In this document: positions 41,355 through 64,000 of the stretch, one piece after another
Layout of the letters: every line of letters starts with the position of its first letter
Numbering within the stretch: position 1 is the first letter of the stretch
Origin: Pristiophorus japonicus
Lineage: Eukaryota
DNA: 64,000 nucleotides
Assembly (NCBI RefSeq): GCF_044704955.1
Contig: NC_091984.1
Span: forward strand, 193,998,001-194,062,000
Direction: 5' to 3'
Made by a program: the position numbers and the translations under genes
The notes under the pieces: generated by a model
The model's input: only the letters and a program-made list of their open reading frames with translations
The model's database searches: none
What the model was told of the DNA's origin: nothing

Positions 41355-43400
41355 ACCAGCATCAAGGCATTGACCACGCTCGATCAGCTCCGATGGACGG
41401 GCCACATACTAGACTCTCGAAACCATCATTCTACTCCGAGCTACGTCACCGCAAGCAAGCCCTAGGAGGGCAGAGAAAACGAGTCAAGGACACCCTCAAA
41501 GCCTCCTTGAAAAAAAGTTATATCCCCACCGACTCTTGGGAATCCCTGGCTCATGACCGCTCAAAGTGGAGGCGAAGCATCTGAGAAGGTGCCGAACACT
41601 TCAAGTCTCTTAGCCGGGTGCACGCGGAAGCCAAGTACAAACAGCGGAAGGGGCGTACGACAAACCAAGCACCCCACCCACCCGGCCCTCCAACCACCGT
41701 CTGCCCCACCTGTGACAGAGACGGTAGATCCCGCATTGGTCTCATCAGTACCTTACAACTCATTTTATATAAGAGCATAAGAAATAGAAGCAGGAGGAGG
41801 CCACCTGGCCTCTCGAGCCTGCTCCGCCATTTAATAAGATCATGGTTGATCTGATCATGGAATTAGCTCCACGTCCCTGCCTGCTCCCCATAACCCTTTA
41901 TTCCCTTATCACTCAAAAATCTGTCTATCTCCGCCTTAAATATATTCAATGACCCAGCCGCCACAGCTCTCTGGGGTAGAGAATTCCATAGAATTACAAC
42001 CCTCTGAGAGAAGAAACTCCTCCTCATTTCAGTTTTAAAGAGGTGGCCCCTTATTCTGAGACTATGTCCCCTAGTTTTAGTTTCCCCTATGAGTGAAAAT
42101 ATCCTCTCTGCGTCCACCTTGTTGAGTTCCCTCATTATCTTATAAGTTTCAATAAGATCACCTCCCATTCTTCTGAACTCCAATGTGTAAAGGCCCAACC
42201 TACTCAATCTATCCCCATAAGTCAACCCCCTCATCTCTGGAACTAACCTAGTGAACCTTCTCTGAACAGCCTCCAATGCAAGTATATCCTTCCTTAAATA
42301 CGGAGACCAAAACTGTACGCAATACTCTAGGTGTGGCCTCACCAATACCTGATGCAGTTGTAACATGACTTCACTGCTTTTATACGCTATCCCCCTTGCA
42401 ATAAAGGCCAACATTCAATTTGCCTTCCTGATTACTAGCTGTACCTGCATACTAACTTTTTGTGTTTCATGCACAAGGACCCCTAGGTCCCTCAGTACTG
42501 TAGCACTTTGCAATTTTTCTCCATTTAAATTATAATGTGCTTTTCTATTTTTTCTGCCAACGTGGATTACCTCACATTTTCCCACATTGTACTCCATCTG
42601 CCAAATTTTTGCCCACTCACTTAGCCTGTCTAAATCTCATTGCAGATTTTTTGTGCCCTCCTCACAATTTGTTTTCCCACCCATCTTTGTATCATCAGCA
42701 AATTTGGCTACATTACACTCGGTTCCTTCATCCAAGTTATTAATATAGACTGTAAATATTTGAGGGCCCAACACCGATCCCTGCGGCACCCCACTAGTCA
42801 TTGTTTGCCAACTGGAAAATGACCAATCCCGACTCTCTGTTTCTGTTAGTTAGCCAATCCTCTATCCATACTAATATATTACCCCCAACCCCCTGAACTT
42901 TTATCTTGTGCAGTAACCTTTTATGTGGCACCTTATCGAATGCCTTCTGGAAATCCAAATACACCACATCCACTGGTTCCCCCTTATCCACCCTGCTCGT
43001 TACATCCTCAAAGAACTCCACCAAATTTGTCAAAACCATGCTGACTCCACGTGATTGAATTATGCTTTTCCAATGTCCTGTTAATGCTTCCTTAATCGTG
43101 GAATCCAGCATTTTCCCAATGACAGATATTTGGCTTTCCAATCCACTAGGATCGCCCCAGAATCCAGGGAATTTTGGTAGATTACAACCAATGCATGCAT
43201 TATCTTTTAAGACCCTAGGATGTAAACCATCAGGTCCAGGGGACTTGTTTGCCTTTAGTCCCATTATTTTACCGAGTACTACTTCATTAGGGATAGTGAG
43301 TGTTTCCTCCCTCCCTATAGCCCTTTGATTATTCATTATTGAGATGTTTTTAGTGCGGAAGCAAGTCATCCTCGACTCCGGGGTTTGCCTAAGAGAGAGA
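41355..43400 (+). mobile_element. RTE-clade 3' fragment (41355-41768 and about 43353-43400) split by a CR1
   Basis: GGQRKRVKDTLKASL. The tail ggaagcaagtcatcctcgactcc matches 6520-6550. Confidence 0.75.
41769..43352 (-). mobile_element. CR1 fragment (RT to 3' end) carrying an empty Tx1 target-like site at 42464-42478
   Basis: ORFs 42794-43369, 42415-42597 (RDLGVLVHETQKV) and 41863-42414. Confidence 0.95.
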
Positions 43401-53228: not shown

Positions 53229-56200
53229 TGTCATGTATCTCACATTACTGTATATAACTGTATCTTACCATGCTATACATGACTGTAACTGGATATGACC
53301 TGTAACAATAAGCATAACTTACCACCAGGGGTGCACTTGCAGGAGACACTCCATACCTGTCCCACTGTGGTATATAAAGGGAGGTCTCAGGCAAGAGCAG
53401 CACGGGAGAGCTGGAATTAAAGGTGCAGGTCCTGAGTGACCTTGACTTCAGCATGTGTCTCGTGTAAGTCAGTACATTAGAGTCAGGACTTAACAGTGGT
53501 GACGAGTTATGGGATCACAGAATCTACAGAATGGCTACCAACAGCTCAGATGAGAATTACAATGCTTGAGACAATTGGGATGACTTTATAGGAAGGCTCT
53601 AGCAAAGCTTTGTAACCAAAGACTGGTTGGGCGACGATAAGGCAGACAAGAGAAGAGCCCATCTCTTGACCAGCTGTGGCTCGAAAACATATGCTTCAAT
53701 GAAAGACCTGCTGGCACCCGAGAAACCAGCAAGCAAGTCGTTTGAGGAGTTGAGCACACTGGTGAGAGACCACCTGAAGCCAGCGAGCAGCCTATACATG
53801 GCCAGACACAGGTTCTACAACTACACTTGCTGTGTGTGCCAGAGCATACCCAACTTCGTGGCGGAACTTCGGAGGCTGGCTAGTTCATGTGAGTTCCCCG
53901 ATGAACTCAGGAGAGAAGTACTGAGAGACTTTTTTATTGAAGGAGTAGGCCACGCAGGCATATTCCGAAAGCTTATTGAGACTAAGAACTTGACTCTAGA
54001 GGCAGCAGCACTGGTCGTACAGACGTTCTTGGCAGGCGAAGAAGAAACGAGGCTGATCTATGCTTCGGGTACGACGACCAACGACGATCAGAACAAGGGG
54101 TTCACATTGTGAAACAAACCGCTACCCCCCACACACAGACAAAGGCAGGAGAGCAGGCCTTCAACAGCAGACAGTGGCACCAGAAGCCATCAAAATCAAG
54201 GGCCACATGAACGGCCGATCACACCTCATCAACCCACAATGCGAGCAATCAACAACAGATTGAGAGAAGCTCAAGGGAGATCAGCCAGACGCAGCTCATC
54301 CTTCGGAAACAATGGAAACGGTCTGTGTTGAAGATGTGGGGGAAGGCACTCAACCAGGGTGTGTTGATTTCAGCATGCCGTTTGCAGAAACTGCAACTAC
54401 ACGGGGCATCTGGCTCGCATGTGCAGAAAAACAGCAGCTCGGCTGGTATACGAATCGGAAGGGTCGGAAAGCAGACCAGAAGACGGTTGGAACAGTGCAC
54501 GGGACGCCAAGTTACAGCGGGTTAACACGATCAATGTCCACTGTTCTTACACCAAGATGCCTTCAATTATGATGAGGGTTCTACTCAACGGGATACCCGT
54601 CAACATGGAACTGGACACGGGGGCCAGTCAATCCCTCATGAGCGTTCAACAATTTGAACAGCTGTGGCCGCACAAAAGCAACAGATCAAAACTCACAAAG
54701 ATCGACACGAAACTAAGGACCTATACTAAAGAAATCGTCCCAGTCCTTGGCAGCGCCATGCTCTCAGTCACACACAAAGGGATAGTGCACCGACTTTCCC
54801 TGTGGATTGTCCCCAGGGATCTCCCAGCCCTGTTGGGGAGAAGCTGGCTAGCAGAACTTAATTGGAAATGGGATGATGTTCACGCAATGTCATCAGAGGA
54901 ACGGACCTCCTGCTCAACAGTTCTAAGCCGTTTTGAACATCTCTTTCAGCCAGGTGTGGGCACCTTCAAAGGGGCTAAAGTTAGAATCTACATCACACAG
55001 AATGCCAGACCGGTCCATCACAAGGCTAGAGCTGTGCCTTATGTGATGAGGGAAAAGATTGAAAACGGCTTCTGCGGGAAGGCATAATTTCTCCCATGGA
55101 ATTCAGCGACTGGGCAAGCCCCATCGTCCCCGTCATGAAGCCTGATGGAACCGTGCGAATCTGTGGGGATTACGAGTCTACCATAAACAGAGTCTCCCAA
55201 CAGGACCAATACCCGCTGCCCAGAGCGGAGGACCTATTTGCCACGTTGGCTAGAGGGAAACTTTTCTCGAAACTTGACCTCACATCTGCATATATGACGC
55301 AAGAACTGACCGAAGAGTCTAAGCTACTCACCACCATCAACACACATCGAGGCCTTTTTGTGTACAATCGATGCCCATTCGGCATCAGGTTGGCAGCTGC
55401 TATATTCCAGCGCAACATGGAGAGTCTGCTCAAGTCCATCCTGGGGACGGTTGTGTTTCAAGATGACATACTCATCACGGGCAGGGACACCGACTCTCAT
55501 CTCCGCAATCTTGAGGAGGTACTAAGTCGATTGGATTGGATAGGCCTAAGAGTTAAGAAATCCAAGTGTCTGCTTCTCGCGCCTGAGGTTGAATTTTTGG
55601 GCAGAAGGATTGCCGCTGATGGAATCCGCCCAACCGAATCCAAAACCGAAGCGATTCGCCTGGCACCCAGGCCCTGGAATGTCTCGGAACTGCGTGCCTT
55701 TCTCGGGCTACTCAATTAATTTGGGAACTTTATGCAGAACTTGAGCATGCTGCTGGAGCCTCTCCACGAGCTACTCAGAAAGGGTGTGATTGGTTTTGGG
55801 GGACGCCCAAGAGCGCGCCTTCAATAAGGCACGCAACCTTCTATGTTCCAAGAGTGTTTTAGCCTTTTTTGACCCAGGTAAAAAGTTAGTCCTTATGCAT
55901 GATGCACATCAGCGTACGGGGTCGAGTCCATTTCACAGCACGTCAATGATGCGGGTAAATTGCAGCCCGTTGCTTATGCCTCCAGGTCACTTTCGCGGGC
56001 AGAGCGCGGGTACGGTATGGTTGAAAAAGATGCACCAATACCTTTTCGGGGCCAAGTTTGCATTAGAAACTGACCACAAACCCCTCACGTCCCTACTATC
56101 CGAGTGCAAAGCAATCAATGCCAACGCCTCAGCGCGCATTCAGCAGTGGGCACTCATGCTGGCGGCCTACGACTACACAATAAGGCACAGACCAGGCACA

Positions 56201-57942
56201 GACAACTGTGCCGACGCGCTTAGCAGGCTACCCCTGGTGACCACAGAAGGGTCCAACGAACAGGACTGTGAGATGGTCATGGCAATCAATGCCTTTGAAT
56301 CCACAGGTTCGCCCATGACGGCTCGCCAAATCAGAGCCTGGACAACCAACGACCCCACGTTATCTCTAGTTAAAAGATGCGTTTTAACCGGTGACTGGGC
56401 AGAGGCTCGCGATGCCTGCCCCGAGGAGGTCAAACCCTTCCATAGGCGCATGCATGAACTCTCACTACAGCCGAGTAGTTATGCCCTTACGAGGCAGGGA
56501 GGCGTTTGTCCGGGAGCTCAATCGCGAACACCCGGGGATCGTCCTTATGAAGGCCACAGCCAGATCTCATGTCTGGTGGCCTGGCATTGACGCGGACTTG
56601 GAGCTCTGCGTCCGGCGGTGCACCATTTGTGCCCAACTCAGTATTGCCCCCAGGGAGGCCCCCTTAAGCCCCTGGCCCACCAAACCGTGGTCGCGGGTGC
56701 ATGTAGACTATGTGGGCCCATTCATGGGCAAAATGTTCCTTGTAGTCGTTGATGCATTTTCAAAATGGATTGAGTGCACCATTTTAAACTCGAGCACCAA
56801 CTCCACCACTGTAGAGAGCCTTCGACCCATGTTTGCAACGCACGGCATCCCTGACATATTGGCCAGTGATAATGGTCTGTGCTTCACCAGCGCAGAATTT
56901 CACGATTTTATCGTTGACCACGGTATAAATCACGTTAAGATGGCACCTTTCAAGCCTGCCTCCAATGGCCAGGCAGAGTGAGCAGTGCAGATCGTTAAAC
57001 AAGGCATGCTCAGAATCCAAGGTCCCACGCTGCAGAGCCGCCTGTTGCGACTGCTGCTGGCATACAGATCTCGTCCGCATTCGTTGACTGAGGTTCCCCC
57101 CGTGCAACTACTGATGAAACGAACCTTAAAGACCAGGCTCTCGTTAATCCTCCTAGACGTGCATGAAATTGTTGAGGCTAAGCATCAAAAGCTAACTGAG
57201 TACCATAACTGAAATTCGAGGGGGAGGTGGAATGAGATAGGGGACAAAGTGTTTGTGCTAAACTATGGCCGGGCTCCCAAATGACTTGCAGGGACAGTAA
57301 CAGACAAAGAGGGAAACAGGCTACTGGTTGTACAAATGGACAATGGCCAAACCTGCCGGAGGCATGTAGACCAAATAAAAAGTAGATTCACTGATAACAC
57401 TGAAGAACCAGAGGCAGACTACAATGTGGAACTCACACCACACCTGGTGGACAGACAGATGGAACAACCTGAGGAAAGGGCAGTCTCAATAGACAGCCCA
57501 GGCGAGGTACCAGCAATCACACCGAACGAAACAGACAGCCCAGGCGAGATACCAACAATCACACTGAATGAAAAACAGGCAAACAACTGAACCACAACTA
57601 AGACGCTCCACGCGAGAGCGCAGACCACCTGAGAGACTGAATCTATGAAGGCAATAAGACCTTGGGGGATGGTGATGTCATATATCTCACATTACTGTAT
57701 ATAACTGTATCTTACCATGCTATACATGACTGTAACTGGATATGACCTGTAACAATAAGCATAACTTACCACCAGGGGTGCACTTGCAGGAGACACTCCA
57801 TACCTGTCCCACTGTGGTATATAAAGGGAGGTCTCAGGCAAGAGCAGCACTGGAGAGCTGGAATTAAAGGTGCAGGTCCTGAGTGACCTTGACTTCAGCA
57901 TGTGTCTCGTGTAAGTCAGTACATTAGAGTCAGGACTTAATA
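53229..57942 (+). mobile_element. Full-length Gypsy/Ty3 LTR retrotransposon (element 2)
   Basis: 267-bp LTRs at 53229-53495 and 57676-57942 (3 differences seen). PBS TGGTGACGAG at 53497, PPT-like GGGGGATGGTGA, and TSD CCTTC/CCTTT. Confidence 0.95.
53531..57647 (+). pseudogene. Gypsy gag-pol, fragmented by many stops and frameshifts
   Basis: gag (LRDFFIEG), PR (DTGAS), RT (WASPIVPV, FQDD), RH (TDHKP, ADALSRL) and IN (HPG, HVDY, SDNG, PASNGQAE). Confidence 0.93.
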
Positions 57943-58519: not shown

Positions 58520-59246
58520 CATAAGAACATAAGAACATAAGAACATAAGAATTAGAAACAGGAGTAGGCCATCTAGCCCCTCGAGCCTGCTCCGCCATTC
58601 AACAAGATCATGGCTGATCTGGCCGTGGACTCAGCTCCACTTACCCGCCTGCTCCCCATAACCCTTAATTCCCTTATTGGTTAAAAATCTATCTATCTGT
58701 GATTTGAATACATTCAATGAGCTAGCCTCAACTGCTTCCTTGGGCAGAGAATTCCACAGATTCACAACCCTCTGGGAGAAGAAATTCCTTCTCAACTCGG
58801 TTTTAAATTGGCTCCCCTGTATTTTGAGGCTGTGCCCCCTAGTTCTAGTCTCCCTGACCAGTGGAAACAACCTCTCTGCCTCTATCTTGTCTATCCCTTT
58901 CATTATTTTAAATGTTTCTATAAGATCACCCCTCATCCTTCTGAACTCCAACGAGTAAAGATCCAGTCTACTCAATCTATCATCATAAGGTAACCCCCTC
59001 ATCTCCGGAATCAGCCTAGTGATTCGTCTCTGTACCCCCTCCAAAGCTAGTATATCCGTCCTTAAGTAAGGTGACCAAAACTGCACGCAGTACTCCAGGT
59101 GCGGCCTCATCAATACCCTATACAGTTGCAGCAGGACCTCCCTGCTTTTGTATTCCATCCCTCTCGCAATGAAGGCCAACATTCCATTCGCCTTCCTGAT
59201 TACCTACTACACCTGCAAACTATCCTTCTGTGATTCATGCACAAGG
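58520..59246 (-). mobile_element. Young CR1 3' portion, interrupted at 59246 by Tx1 elements
   Basis: Open 183-aa C-terminal frame and an (AAGAACAT)n tail. CR1 similarity ends abruptly at ...ttcatgcacaagg. Confidence 0.95.
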
Positions 59247-61500
59247 GCACATGATCCACCCCGACCAGTCATACACGGTCCTGGGCCGGACAATCCACGA
59301 TAACATCCATCTGGTCCGGGACCTCATCCATTGTTCCCAGGAGGCTGGTGTGTCGGTCGCCTTCCTATCCCTCGACCAAGAGAAGGCGTTCGACAGGGTG
59401 GATCACGACTATCTGCTCGGAACTCTGCGCGCTTTCGGGTTCGGGACGCATTTCGTCGCCCGGATCCGACTTTTGTACGCCGCCGCGGAGTGTCTGATTA
59501 AGGTTAACGGGTCCTTGACGGCGCCCCTTCGCTTTAGGAGAGGGGTGCGCCAGGGATGCCCCATGTCCGGCCAGTTATATGCTGTTTGCGTGGAGCCTTT
59601 CCTGCGCCTCTTGCGGACGAGGTTGACGGGACTGGCTCTGCAAGGGCCGGGCGTGGAGGTCGTCCTCTCGGCTTACGCCGATGACGTGCTCCTCGCGGTA
59701 GAGGATCCCGCTGACCTGCGGAGGATGCGTGAGTGCCAGGAGATTTACTCGGCCGCGTCCTCCGCCAGGATCAACTGGGAGAAATGTTCCGGACTCCTGG
59801 TGGGTCAGTGGCGGGTGGACTCCCTGCCGGAGGAGCTCAGGCCTTTTGCCTGGAGCACGACCCATCTCCTCTATCTGGGAGTCTACCTTAGCCCCGACGA
59901 GGGAGCCTGGCCGGCGAACTGGCAGGAGCTGGAGGCCAAGGTCGCCGCTCGCCTAGGGCGCTGGACAGGACTGCTCCGAGTGCTGTCCTACAGGGGTCGA
60001 GCGCTAGTCATAAACCAGCTGGTGGCCGCAATGCTGTGGTACCGGCTGGTCACTTTGACCCCTCCCCCTGCGTTTGTCGCCAAGATACAGAAGAAGCTGG
60101 TGGACTTCTTCTGGAACAACAGGAAGCACTGGGTCTCTGCTGCGGTCTTGAGTCTCCCGCTTGAGGAGGGCGGTCAGTCGTTGGTGTGCGTCAGCGCCCA
60201 GCTCGCGACTTTCCGTCTTCAGACCCTGCAGAGATACCTTTACGTCGAGCCCCCTCCTAGGTGGTGTGCTCTGGCGAGGTATTTCTTCCGCCAGCAGCTC
60301 GACCTCAATTATGACACGCAGCTCCTGTTTGTGAACTTGGGGGGTGCCAGGACCGCCCTCCGGGAGCTGCCTGTCTTTTACAGGGAACTCATCAGGGTCT
60401 GGAACAAAGTCTCCACCAAGCGCAGCTCTCCGCCGGCTGGAGTGGCGGCCGTCCTGCAGGAACCGCTGCTCGGGAATCCGTACCTCCACGGCCGAGGCTT
60501 TATGTGGCGGTCGGAAGAGAGGGCTGTGGCTGGTGAGGTGACCAGGGTCAGGGACCTGCTCGATGGCGGAGGAGCGGGCTGGATGGCGCCAGACACGCTG
60601 GCGCGGCGCCTAAATTCTGCCAACGTCCGCCACGTGGCCGATGCCATCGAGTCGCTAAAAACAGCTCTGGGCCCTGACTCCGTTAGGTGCATCGAGGAGG
60701 CTCAGGCACGTGGGGAGATCCCGTCCGAACTGACCCCCGTCCGGACGGAATTCCTCATCGGCGCCAAACCCCGGAACCTTCCTCGGGGGCCGGCGCCTCA
60801 CAACTTGAGCCGCCTCAGGGAAATCCTCTCCGTGCCTTTCAGTTCCGCGCGGAGGGGTTTCCTGTACGGGCTGCTCCTGCACACCCTCAACTTTGCCATC
60901 CTCGCCGGCCGTCCGGACACGCCATGGCGTACCATCTTGCCGTCCGGAGGAGGCGGGGGTCCCCGATGGAGGGCACTCTACGCAGGGGTCCTCCCACTAT
61001 TCATCGGGGACTTGGCCTGGAGGGTGGTGCACGGAGCAGTGCCGTGCAATAAATTTTTAAGCCGGTTCACGGACTCCCAGGCCGCCTGCAATTTCTGCGG
61101 TCTGGAGGAGTCCGTGTTCCATGTTTTTATTGAATGCACAAGGTTGCAGCCCCTGTTCCACTATTTGAAGGGGCTGCTCCTGAAATTCTGGCTGCACTTC
61201 AGTCCCACTCTCCTGATCTTTGGGCACCCTGTGCGGAGGGGAGCGGGTAGGTCCGAAGGCCTCCTCGTAGGACTGCTCCTGGGCACGGCCAAGGGTGCCA
61301 TCAGCCGGTCCAGGCAGCGGGCGGTCGAGGGGGTCGTTCAACCTGACTGCCTGCCTCTCTTCCGCTCTTACATCCGGTCCAGGGTGTCCTTGGAGATGGA
61401 GCACGCGGTGTCCACCGGTACGCTCGCGGCCTTCCGCGAGAGGTGGGCACCGGAGGGACTGGAGTGCATCATCACGCCCGGCAACCAAATTTTAATTTGA
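59247..61500 (+). CDS. Tx1-type ORF2, partial (RT and C-terminal zinc finger; endonuclease lost by 5' truncation)
   Basis: Uninterrupted frame: IHPDQSY, LDQEKAFDRVDH, GVRQGCPMSG, AYADDV, YLGV, LSYRGRALVIN, GGQSL and CNFC-x8-H-x4-C. Confidence 0.9.
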
Positions 61501-61719
61501 TTTTACGTTTTTTAAGTTTAATTTGTTTTAATTGCCGGTGCTTTTAGTGTCCCCCTCTCCTTTTATAGGGGGCACTGGAAAAAAGGAAAAATTTGATTTT
61601 AGTGCCCAAAAAAAAAAACACAAAAAAAAAAAAGGGCCTTGTAAATGTCTTGTGTGTGTCATCCAGGTCGGGTGGCACGGATACATGTTTTATGTTTTCG
61701 CAGGTAAACTCAAAAGAGT
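59247..61719 (+). mobile_element. Tx1-clade non-LTR retrotransposon, 5'-truncated copy A
   Basis: ORF2 from the RT start to its stop, then a 3'UTR with stem-loops and an internal A-rich tract. GC- and CpG-rich. Confidence 0.9.
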
Positions 61720-61732
61720 TTCATGCACAAGG

Positions 61733-64000
61733 AACCAATGGTAGAGCAGTGGAGGCGTGTCCTGCACAGTAGGAGCTGTGAGCAGTGAGAGGAGCAGCTA
61801 TCAACTTTTGCTCCTGCCTGGAGAGCCCTGAGAACAGCCCAGGAAGAGAAGGAAGGAAGGGGCTTCACCACCAACTTTCACCCAGAGGGAGAGGAGGAGA
61901 AAAGAAAACTTTTACTCACTTTTACCATTTCTACAAGGAGTTGGAGAGAGCTCTCTTTCTCTGTTTCTCCCCTCTCTCTCTGCGACCCCTTCCTCCTAAA
62001 TTTAAAAAACCAACAAAACAATTGAGACAACTGAGCAGAGGGAGCTAGGCCCCTCCCCAATTGCCAACTAGGGGAGAGGTGTGCCTCGTTAAGAGCTCCT
62101 CTGCTCAGTCTAATCAAACGAGGCCTAATTAAGACCATTAAGGCCTGTGACTTTGGGGTGGGTGTAGCCCTTAAAGGGACTCCGTGATGGCGACCCCATC
62201 CACGCCGGTGGCAGGGCCAGCGAAGACATATGCGCAGGTGGCAACCGCTTCCACGGCACCTCCTGCGCCACCCGCTGCCCTGCCACCATTCAGACTTATA
62301 ACAAAGAAACACGGGGTCAAGAGCTACACTCACCCCACAATGAGCATCGAGGAGTGCGTGCGGGCGATGGCTGGGGTAGTCGGCCCCTCGGCCATTGTCG
62401 CGGCCTCCAAGATGTCTGGGAAGGCTGTGTTCTTCCTGGGGTCGGAGCGGGCGGTGTCCCTGGCCCTCGAAAGGGGGCTCACGGTGGGTGGGACGTTCCT
62501 GCCGGTGGATCCCCTCGAGGCCACCGCGCAGAGGGTCATCGTGTCGAACGTGCCGCCCTTTGTTCCCGCTGGGCTCCTCCTCCCTCACCTACAACAACTG
62601 GGGGAGGTAAGGTCAGGGATCAACCCCATACCGCTCGGCCTCAGGGAGAGCAGCCTGCGCCACGTGTTCTCCTTCCGCCGCCAGCTCTTTGTCCGGCTGG
62701 CGCGGGAGGAGACGACGGAGGGGTCTTTTAATGTGGTGCACGAGGGGACTGCCTACCGCGTCTTCTGGACGTCGGACGGCGTGCGGTGCTGTGCCTGCAG
62801 AGAGGTGGGGCACATTCGCAAGAACTGACCCGCCTCCAAGGCCGCCAAACCACCGAAGGCGGCCAAGGCTGGCACCGCCGCCACCCCTCCCCCTAGTTGC
62901 GTCCGCGTGCCGGGAGCCATAGGTGCGCGGGCATCGCCGGGGGCCCTTGCTATTACGGCCTCCGGCGGGGGGGAGGAAGAGCATCCGATCGGAAGGAAGG
63001 CGCGGGAGAAGGCAAAACATCCAGAGGCGGGTCCCCTCGGTGCGCCAGACAATTTGTTTACCGCGCTCGGCCCAACCCAGTCACCGGCGAGCGCGGGGTG
63101 CCCCGAGCCCGTGCCCGAGCCCTTGAACAACACCACAGAGGGGCCCGGGCGCGGGCAAGAAAAGGAAAAGGGGGGGGCGGAGCGGGAGGCCTCGGCAGAC
63201 ATGGAGGTCTCCCTGCCTCCGCGCGCCCCCAGGAACAAAAGGAGGCGCGGCTCCGATGAGGCGGAGGGGCAACAACACCCCTCCGCGGAGGAGTCGGTGC
63301 CCGCCGCGTGTCCCGCGTCCCCAACCAGCGCCCCCAAGCTGCGCTGTAGGCGAGAGGAGTCTGTCCCCGGGGAGGGTGAGACAGTCGAGGCTGCCCAGCC
63401 TCTGCCTCCCGGGGATGGCGTGGAAGATCTGCCTGTCATGGGGGGCGTGGGGAACACGGAGGAATGCATTGCCGCCGGGCCGGGCGTCCCGGGGACTGAG
63501 GCGGGCGGGGCCGAAAAGGCCGAACCTGAGCCCGCCCAGCTATTAATCAACTTCCCCCGGGAGTCGCTCGACCCGGCAGAAACACAAATGATTGATTTTA
63601 ATGAAACTGTAGATGCTGGGCCGGGGTGTGGCAGCGGGGAGGGGGAGGAACACCCACCCTCGCCCCTTACTTTGGAGCTGGAGCACTTGGGGAGCCTGGG
63701 GATTTCCTATGGCCGGGTCTCTCCTTGTTCCCCGGTTCCTGGGGCGGAGGGGGAACCCCTTCTGCTGTCGTTTCCCGACCCAGCACCATTTTTAAAAGAG
63801 CCCAGTGGGGACTCCTCTGCCGACGATCCTGGGGGTGGGATCGGGGCAGAGCCAGGGCCGGTTGGAGCGGCCGGGTCATTTGCCGTACCTTGTGCGGTCG
63901 ATGGGCCGGCTGCTGGCGGCCACCTCCCGGAGGAGGACGGGGACTCGGTGGGGGACGCGGGAGAAAACCTAGAGACCACCGCCAGCGAGGCGGTGGATCT
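61733..64000 (+). mobile_element. Tx1-clade element, copy B (5'UTR and ORF1, runs off the window)
   Basis: About 450 bp of leader, then an ORF1-like protein in the same orientation as copy A. Confidence 0.85.
62187..64000 (+). pseudogene. Tx1-type ORF1 (gag-like) with a nonsense change in the zinc knuckle
   Basis: TYAQV, AASKMSGKAVFFL, VSNVPPF and LRHVFSFRRQ, then C.ACREVGHIRKN* with TGA at 62826-62828 where the last Cys is expected. A Pro/Glu/Ala-rich frame follows. Confidence 0.82.

Follow-up and report, generated by a model that had tools for sequence, protein, structure and literature searches.

A Tx1L-like LINE family of Pristiophorus japonicus with a CR1 coding motif as its target site

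Background

Which process places two tandem copies of one long interspersed nuclear element (LINE) inside another LINE, with the same 13-mer before and between them? The question is raised by a stretch of 64,000 nucleotides from Pristiophorus japonicus (NCBI RefSeq assembly GCF_044704955.1, contig NC_091984.1, positions 193,998,001 to 194,062,000 of the forward strand), referred to below as the window, in which a CR1 LINE is interrupted by copies A and B of an element resembling Xenopus Tx1L. The preliminary description of the window had proposed a Tx1 family that cuts a coding motif of CR1, inserts antisense to it, regenerates the site as a target-site duplication (TSD) and re-uses it to build arrays. 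The analysis reported here identifies a real, high-copy, sequence-specific Tx1L-like family whose target is a LINE coding motif.

Results

Target site and duplication

The 13-bp TSD is TCATGCACAAGGA, the antisense of codons in the RDLGVLVHE motif of CR1 open reading frame (ORF) 2, and is situated some 700 nt from the CR1 3' end. The element itself terminates in ...AAAAGAGTT, a predicted hairpin without poly(A); in all common variants among 147 distinct 3' ends, the last 14-16 nt are predicted to fold as a 5-bp hairpin. According to exact matches of an element-only 21-mer from the 3' end, 845 of 1,196 element 3' ends run exactly into the site (genome-wide counts were made by pattern searches in the 5.92-Gb genome). 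Among the first 100 listed 3' ends, judged by eye, 72 are exact, 10 have at most two mismatches and 1, an array, stands at the site with its duplication shortened, which places 83 of the 100 examined ends at the CR1 site. The 5'-end 20-mer has at least 4,017 matches; of the first 30 listed, 28 are preceded by the site within one mismatch and the other 2 stand at the site with a shortened duplication, 9 of the 30 coming directly after CR1 and 21 after another copy. In the tabulation set beforehand as a test, the flanks are thus not heterogeneous: most lie at one CR1 position and in one orientation, the element being antisense to CR1 at every CR1 junction seen, as had been proposed. For the patterns used, there are 7,289 filled sites vs 42,494 empty ones, an occupancy of about 15%. 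By the measure of PMC4494074, which calls a Tx1 element target-specific when one target makes up >20% of its flanks, the family is target-specific. No Mariner or U2 small nuclear RNA flank was found among the 100 + 30 ends by eye and by BLAST against CR1, and the family is thereby set apart by target from the Tx1-Mar / Keno group.

The duplication is a true TSD, since the same site variant recurs on both sides of the insert at L038, L064, L065, L071 and L080 (locus labels of this study), in line with the proposed regeneration of the site. Off-target copies (L041, L058, L068, L072, L076, L079 and L082) carry their own duplications of 11-14 bp after the same ...GAGTT end, which fixes the boundary between element and duplication as given above. 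These two observations also rule out the 13-mer as a fixed part of the element that travels in its RNA. The 13-mer reported in the preliminary description does flank copy A, with exact matches at 59234 and 61720; the true duplication, however, lies one base to the right (Table 1), the reader's first T being a one-base overlap of element end and target, as the off-target copies show. A tRNA-array target, suggested by L059, was also rejected, the tRNA of L059 being part of an insert at the CR1 site. As for the off-target sites, 16 of 17 start with TC or AA following T, and the AA class resembles the L1 consensus (PMC1950540). Among hosts, the GGGAT subfamily of CR1 accounts for 57 of 60 sampled filled sites (matches 31-91 of the filled-site list, one omitted as the same locus) vs 70 of 100 empty ones. 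None of the flanks seen belongs to the CR1 families with TGATGTACCATGA at the site position, which make up 37 of 94 uninterrupted copies.

The window itself tells the same story. Exact 13-mer matches occur at 42466, 59234 and 61720, and five further matches with two mismatches are at chance level. The match at 42466 is the empty site that had been claimed for an uninterrupted CR1, and the host CR1 3' part is collinear with this uninterrupted copy at 41760-43100. Reading past 64000, the array is closed by a fourth copy of the site (L001:4433-4445), beyond which the host CR1 continues in collinear order. In the comparison with the uninterrupted CR1, positions 10-719 of the latter correspond to 58537-59246 and its positions 705-1275 to 68430-69005 (window-extended coordinates). 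Translated in antisense, the right flank closes with ...QRDLGVLVHE, which bears out the assignment of the site to the motif DLGVLVHE. Copy A was correctly placed inside a minus-strand CR1; it starts only at 59248, however, and is 5'-truncated within the reverse transcriptase (RT) domain. Copies A and B have two different 5' starts and differ by 47 scattered substitutions, so this array is of the simple kind. Copy B is decayed: ORF1 is interrupted by a stop at 62826 and ORF2 by two, and the 5' untranslated region (UTR) lacks about 480 nt that an intact copy has.

Element identity

The element is a Tx1-clade non-LTR (long terminal repeat) retrotransposon, with APE endonuclease and RT in ORF2, ORF1 ahead of it and an RT that groups with Tx1L. 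A natural full-length unit (L145) has an intact ORF1 frame of 702 codons (stop to stop), which matches a zinc knuckle only weakly (zf-CCHC below cut-off), and an ORF2 frame of 1,306 codons with Exo_endo_phos (6e-10, APE endonuclease) and RVT_1 (9e-38, RT) domains. The endonuclease matches L1-EN structures, and 14 of 16 full ORF2 copies contained in single sequence stretches are without a stop. Among 791 matches the closest named protein is Xenopus Tx1L, with ORF2 50% identical over 1,297 aa. In the RT tree (unrooted, 18 rows, 17 of 120 listed homologues, without an L1 outgroup) the query falls at 100/99 support into a 6-row set together with Xenopus Tx1L, two turtle rows, a sturgeon-labelled row and one further row, whereas the retrieved fish elements are 35-39% identical and lie outside this group. 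The Tx1 identity given by the preliminary description is therefore confirmed. All marks of target-primed insertion are present, namely a precise 3' end, variable 5' truncation and a TSD. The element thus works like Tx1L yet is a separate family, its flanks being CR1 ORF2 and not Tx1D.

Regarding relatives elsewhere, contigs of four sequencing runs from four other organisms cover both the element and CR1, in one of them abundantly, but no listed contig piece spans an element/CR1 junction. In run X14, from another organism, a relative of the element is very abundant and mostly 80-95% alike. No RNA dataset is among the listed matches to the searched stretch, which included CR1, so that small shares are uninformative on the element.

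Sister subfamily and second target

A sister subfamily, found via one array that ends in a different junction, has its own distinct 3'-end variants and a target, CTGTGGACAAGCA, that occupies the same codon position in another CR1 family (site 2, as opposed to site 1 of the young subfamily described above). It forms 712 exact junctions with CTGTGGACAAG; at 29 of 30 sister loci the flank is the other CR1 family cut at the same codon, the remaining one being an array junction, and for the sister's own end (326 matches) 28 of 30 flanks lie at CTGTGGAC-like sites. None of 30 sister ends was found at site 1 and none of 100 young-subfamily ends at site 2, with 42,494 empty copies of site 1 vs 5,471 exact ones of site 2 in the genome. 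The single target of the preliminary description is incomplete in this respect, the sister using a different sequence at the same CR1 codon. At L311, a sister array occupies the same codon position in what is apparently a third CR1 family (site beginning CTGTATAC).

In pairwise comparison, copies of the young group (16) diverge by 4.5% and those of the sister (15) by 4.7%, as against 6.4% between the two subfamilies; with internal divergence thus equal, a greater age of the sister was no longer considered. The endonucleases differ at five positions (39 young vs 5 sister copies), and one of these, position 65, aligns with Lys70 of L1, a residue in contact with the DNA at 4-5 bases upstream of the nick (PMC8565326). 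Sites 1 and 2 share 13 of 18 positions, including GGGAT and TG-ACAAG-A, and differ on the side upstream of the nick, where Lys70 of L1 contacts DNA. The different CR1 sites of the two subfamilies are likely due to diverged DNA-cutting enzymes.

Array structure and growth

Arrays of at least two units occupy 13 of the 60 filled sites. In 7 of the 12 adjacent pairs with both starts visible the 5' start is the same, vs 0 of 496 between-locus pairs (32 truncated starts at different loci, entered by hand). Same-start neighbours usually carry different 3'-end variants. Some are step mosaics of a shared 5' part and a foreign 3' part, with 1 substitution in 3.7 kb vs 15 in the last 0.93 kb, 2 in 5.4 kb vs 34 in 1.8 kb, and 2 in 2.5 kb vs 20 in 0.6 kb. 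The proposal that arrays are built by re-use of the site is incomplete: independent re-use is not the only process, because neighbours often share one 5' junction. Array growth is mostly leftward: the later 13-bp duplications of L102 and L212 take in some bases of the resident insert, and in L073, L197 and L066 a junction that is variant or shortened is found again further left but not at the right end.

Several groups of loci deserve separate mention. L202, L203 and L207 (contig C1 at 28.4, 28.9 and 31.5 Mb) are three full-length copies with the same unusual left junction, a short target deletion and differing 3' ends, which would fit duplication of one locus followed by 3'-end replacement. 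L066, L048 and L067 hold arrays of up to at least nine short units at sites that do not resemble the CR1 target, each unit with its own 3'-end variant; renewed insertion at these places may be governed by the resident copy and not by the site. Near-identical filled sites at L004-L007, L084, L087 and L089 (contig C1, 0.17-3.2 Mb) point to segmental duplications near the contig start.

Tip-only inserts and chimeras

In 17 of the 60 filled sites only the last 30 bases or fewer of the element are present, and 864 inserts across the genome consist of 9-14 nt with a duplication on either side. Four different single chimeras join the element tip or 3' part to a small RNA (tRNA in L059, L102 and L040, 5S in L111), as expected from template jumping (PMC4494074).

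Fusions of RNA or of sequences resembling short interspersed elements (SINEs) to the 3' tip or 3' part were noted at L102:1366-1506, L111:1275-1506, L059, L040 and L009/L097, the tRNA-like piece of L097 being below the Rfam threshold. Four of these five are at the CR1 site and L040 is off-target; such fusions give rise to targeted retrocopies. Some tip-only inserts lack a left duplication (L185, L194, L225, L226, L228, L236 and L241), often with a few target bases lost; they change the CR1 motif by a few bases and resemble ordinary mutations.

Features of the window

Coordinates of the array and of the empty site are collected in Table 1. In addition, the window contains an LTR retrotransposon at 53229-57940, with 265-nt terminal repeats of 99% identity. 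Its protease, RT, RNase H and integrase-like frames (domains named by eye) are frameshifted, and it is thus a young but broken copy.

Table 1. Features of the tandem array, its host CR1 and the empty target site in the window
Feature	Position	Strand	Remarks
Host CR1 LINE, 3' part (tail repeats, 3' UTR, ORF2 end)	58520..59234	-	Frame 58631-59203; resumes beyond the array at L001:4446
Left TSD TCATGCACAAGG(G)	59235..59247	+	Antisense of CR1 codons in DLGVLVHE; last base is G
Copy A, Tx1L-like, 5'-truncated	59248..61720	+	Begins inside RT domain; 97.4% identity to copy B
Copy A open ORF2 remnant, 750 aa	59248..61500	+	RVT_1 E 1e-26; zf-RVT below cut-off
3'-terminal predicted hairpin AACTC-AAAA-GAGTT	61707..61720	+	True element end, without poly(A); stem kept across 3'-end variants, loop length varying
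Internal TSD TCATGCACAAGGA separating copies A and B	61721..61733	+	
Copy B, 5' part, full-length (6.7 kb) but decayed	61734..64000	+	Extends to L001:4432, then third duplication at L001:4433-4445
Copy B ORF1	62187..64000	+	Broken by stop at 62826-62828
Empty target site, uninterrupted CR1 of older subfamily	42467..42479	+	GTGTT upstream

Discussion

Site, orientation, duplication, element end, array structure and the subfamily-specific targets can be read directly from the loci. Judging from these junctions, it is likely that a Tx1L-like LINE inserts at one CR1 coding motif, antisense and with a 13-bp duplication, by its own endonuclease, and that arrays form by upstream landing and homology joining. 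The endonuclease would nick the CR1 sense strand at GGGAT|TCATG and the opposite strand 13 bp downstream. Reverse transcription, primed there, would begin at the terminal hairpin with one or two paired bases, and may often abort after about 12-13 nt or jump to tRNA or 5S RNA. The duplication would retain the site at the 5' side of the resident copy, where a later cDNA might pair either with the resident in cis or with that on the sister chromatid, to be completed from the resident or clipped at its 5' boundary, which would combine the old 5' junction with a new 3' end. This pairing of new cDNA with the resident copy, followed by completion or clipping, seems a fairly likely route to the arrays. 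As for the sister subfamily, with five endonuclease residues different, it would prefer the same codon position in a different CR1 family.

Several observations weigh against this reading. With respect to targeting, 17 of the 100 examined 3' ends are off-target (three of them in one array), so the claimed specificity for CR1 holds for most insertions and not for all; also, all loci examined in detail outside the window, except two, lie on contig C1. As for the arrays, the variant junction of the L059 array is not passed leftwards, differences in the L078 array are concentrated at the 5' side, and some neighbours are identical and explicable by plain duplication. In the arrays of L187, L206, L208 and L061, same-start neighbours differ almost throughout, with a step statistic no higher than that of unrelated copies, and it is for these near-full-length differences that the clipping branch of the model is needed. 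Regarding the subfamilies, their differences are not enriched in the endonuclease (5 of 245 residues), because the RT has four in 300 residues, these counts being based on only 5 and 2 sister copies, respectively.

The points on arrays bear on a rival explanation, which keeps the targeting as described and attributes arrays to ordinary tandem duplication, by unequal crossover or slippage at the 13-bp repeats, with later divergence by gene conversion, dispersed copies being the donors, or by cDNA that replaces 3' ends only. Identical neighbours and a duplicated compound block do exist, L202, L203 and L207 share one unusual left junction but have different 3' ends, and the reverse polarity in the L078 array would also fit. 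However, most same-start dimers (L064, L067, L069, L012, L206 and L197) are already 3'-divergent, so the first duplication would need a crossover within 13 bp, followed almost always by conversion. Moreover, the differences reach the 3' terminus, where internal units share just a 13-bp flank with donors, and the duplications containing resident bases (L102 and L212) require a fresh staggered cut. Tandem duplication thus appears a somewhat unlikely account of the arrays. Far less credit is due to the idea that a small number of Tx1 insertions in CR1 spread passively, through retrotransposition of CR1 or through segmental duplication. A few near-identical loci (L004-L007; L084, L087 and L089; L202, L203 and L207) suit it, but the 32 distinct truncation points never coincide between loci, locus-specific variants stand on both duplications, the 864 tip-only inserts are separate and varied in sequence, and the hosts are several CR1 subfamilies, which makes such hitchhiking highly improbable.

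For the subfamilies, the alternative is that both sites fall under a single endonuclease specificity and that each subfamily is paired only with the CR1 family that was plentiful or accessible during its period of activity. The 13 common positions and the few endonuclease differences, not enriched over RT, would agree with this, as would the over-representation of GGGAT CR1 among filled sites, which could be due to timing or chromatin. In contrast, the young subfamily is absent from site 2 in the 100 ends despite 5,471 exact empties, the sister is absent from site 1 in its 30, and both subfamilies have similar internal divergence. A single specificity is therefore regarded as improbable, and diverged enzymes as the likely cause.

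Sister families with different targets have a precedent in the Tx1L/Tx2L pair, and Dewa and Mutsu are further sequence-specific APE LINEs of the Tx1 clade. Tx1L/Tx2L of Xenopus laevis share with the present family the APE endonuclease, the RT, an ORF1 with a zinc knuckle match and sequence-specific insertion into another transposon (PMC1950540). The target of Tx1L, however, is the DNA transposon Tx1D and not a LINE coding motif, and the endonuclease hairpin loop of the present family is shorter than the RDGH loop of Tx1L. The crocodilian elements Tx1-Mar, Tx1-8_Crp, Tx1-4_AMi, Tx1-9_AMi and SINEU-3 likewise have one preferred position inside another transposable element, in antisense, with tandem insertions that sandwich the duplication and template-switched small-RNA heads (PMC4494074). 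In contrast to the present family, the crocodilian Tx1 targets are Mariner, LTR retrotransposons, Harbinger and microsatellites, and the main text of PMC4494074 names no LINE target and describes neither shared 5' array junctions nor tip-only inserts. The Tx1-type targets named there are piggyBac, Mariner, LTR, Harbinger, U2 and microsatellites, besides tandem SINEU-3, and Keno, Kibi and Koshi appear as sequence-specific APE LINEs of the same Tx1 clade (PMC4494074). For Keno, Kibi, Koshi, Dewa and Mutsu the targets are U2 genes, microsatellites, tRNA arrays or 5S genes, unlike the CR1 motif. As compared with the homology-assisted 5' junctions of R2 and the templated insertions of L1, the homologous partner in the present case would be a copy of the element already in place, giving rise to an array with units that have a truncation point in common.

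In a literature search that did not extend to Repbase, Dfam or subscription journals, no Tx1 family targeting CR1 or another LINE was found, and passages of 10.1101/2025.06.08.657570 do not refer to Tx1. Targeting of transposons by Tx1 elements was already known; what is added is a target within LINE coding sequence, together with the split into subfamilies and the make-up of the arrays. The wider claim, evenly balanced between holding and failing, is that of a so far undescribed lineage of LINEs whose specialised target is a protein motif of a different LINE. Its sister subfamilies might have split their endonuclease specificity via at most five residues, so as to follow different CR1 families at one codon, and its arrays might grow by copying or clipping at the resident's 5' boundary, which would provide a natural specificity-switch pair and thousands of frozen integration intermediates.

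A LINE coding sequence thus joins the target classes of site-specific retrotransposons, with thousands of sites. The two subfamilies, about 6% apart in DNA with different sites and five differing endonuclease residues, make the specificity of APE endonucleases directly testable; loop grafting on such enzymes gave non-modular specificity results (PMC1950540). Shared 5' junctions and the inserts of 9-14 nt are relevant to the second half of LINE integration, a poorly understood process. The view of the family as a retrotransposon parasitising a retrotransposon might be better replaced by the use of an abundant safe site, because most CR1 copies are probably already dead. Since the site lies near the CR1 3' end, it would be retained in the majority of 5'-truncated CR1 copies, so that safe targets would be as numerous as possible. 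With at least 4,017 5' ends, the family would amount to about 29 Mb if the copies are full length, and may in this way add to the size of the genome.

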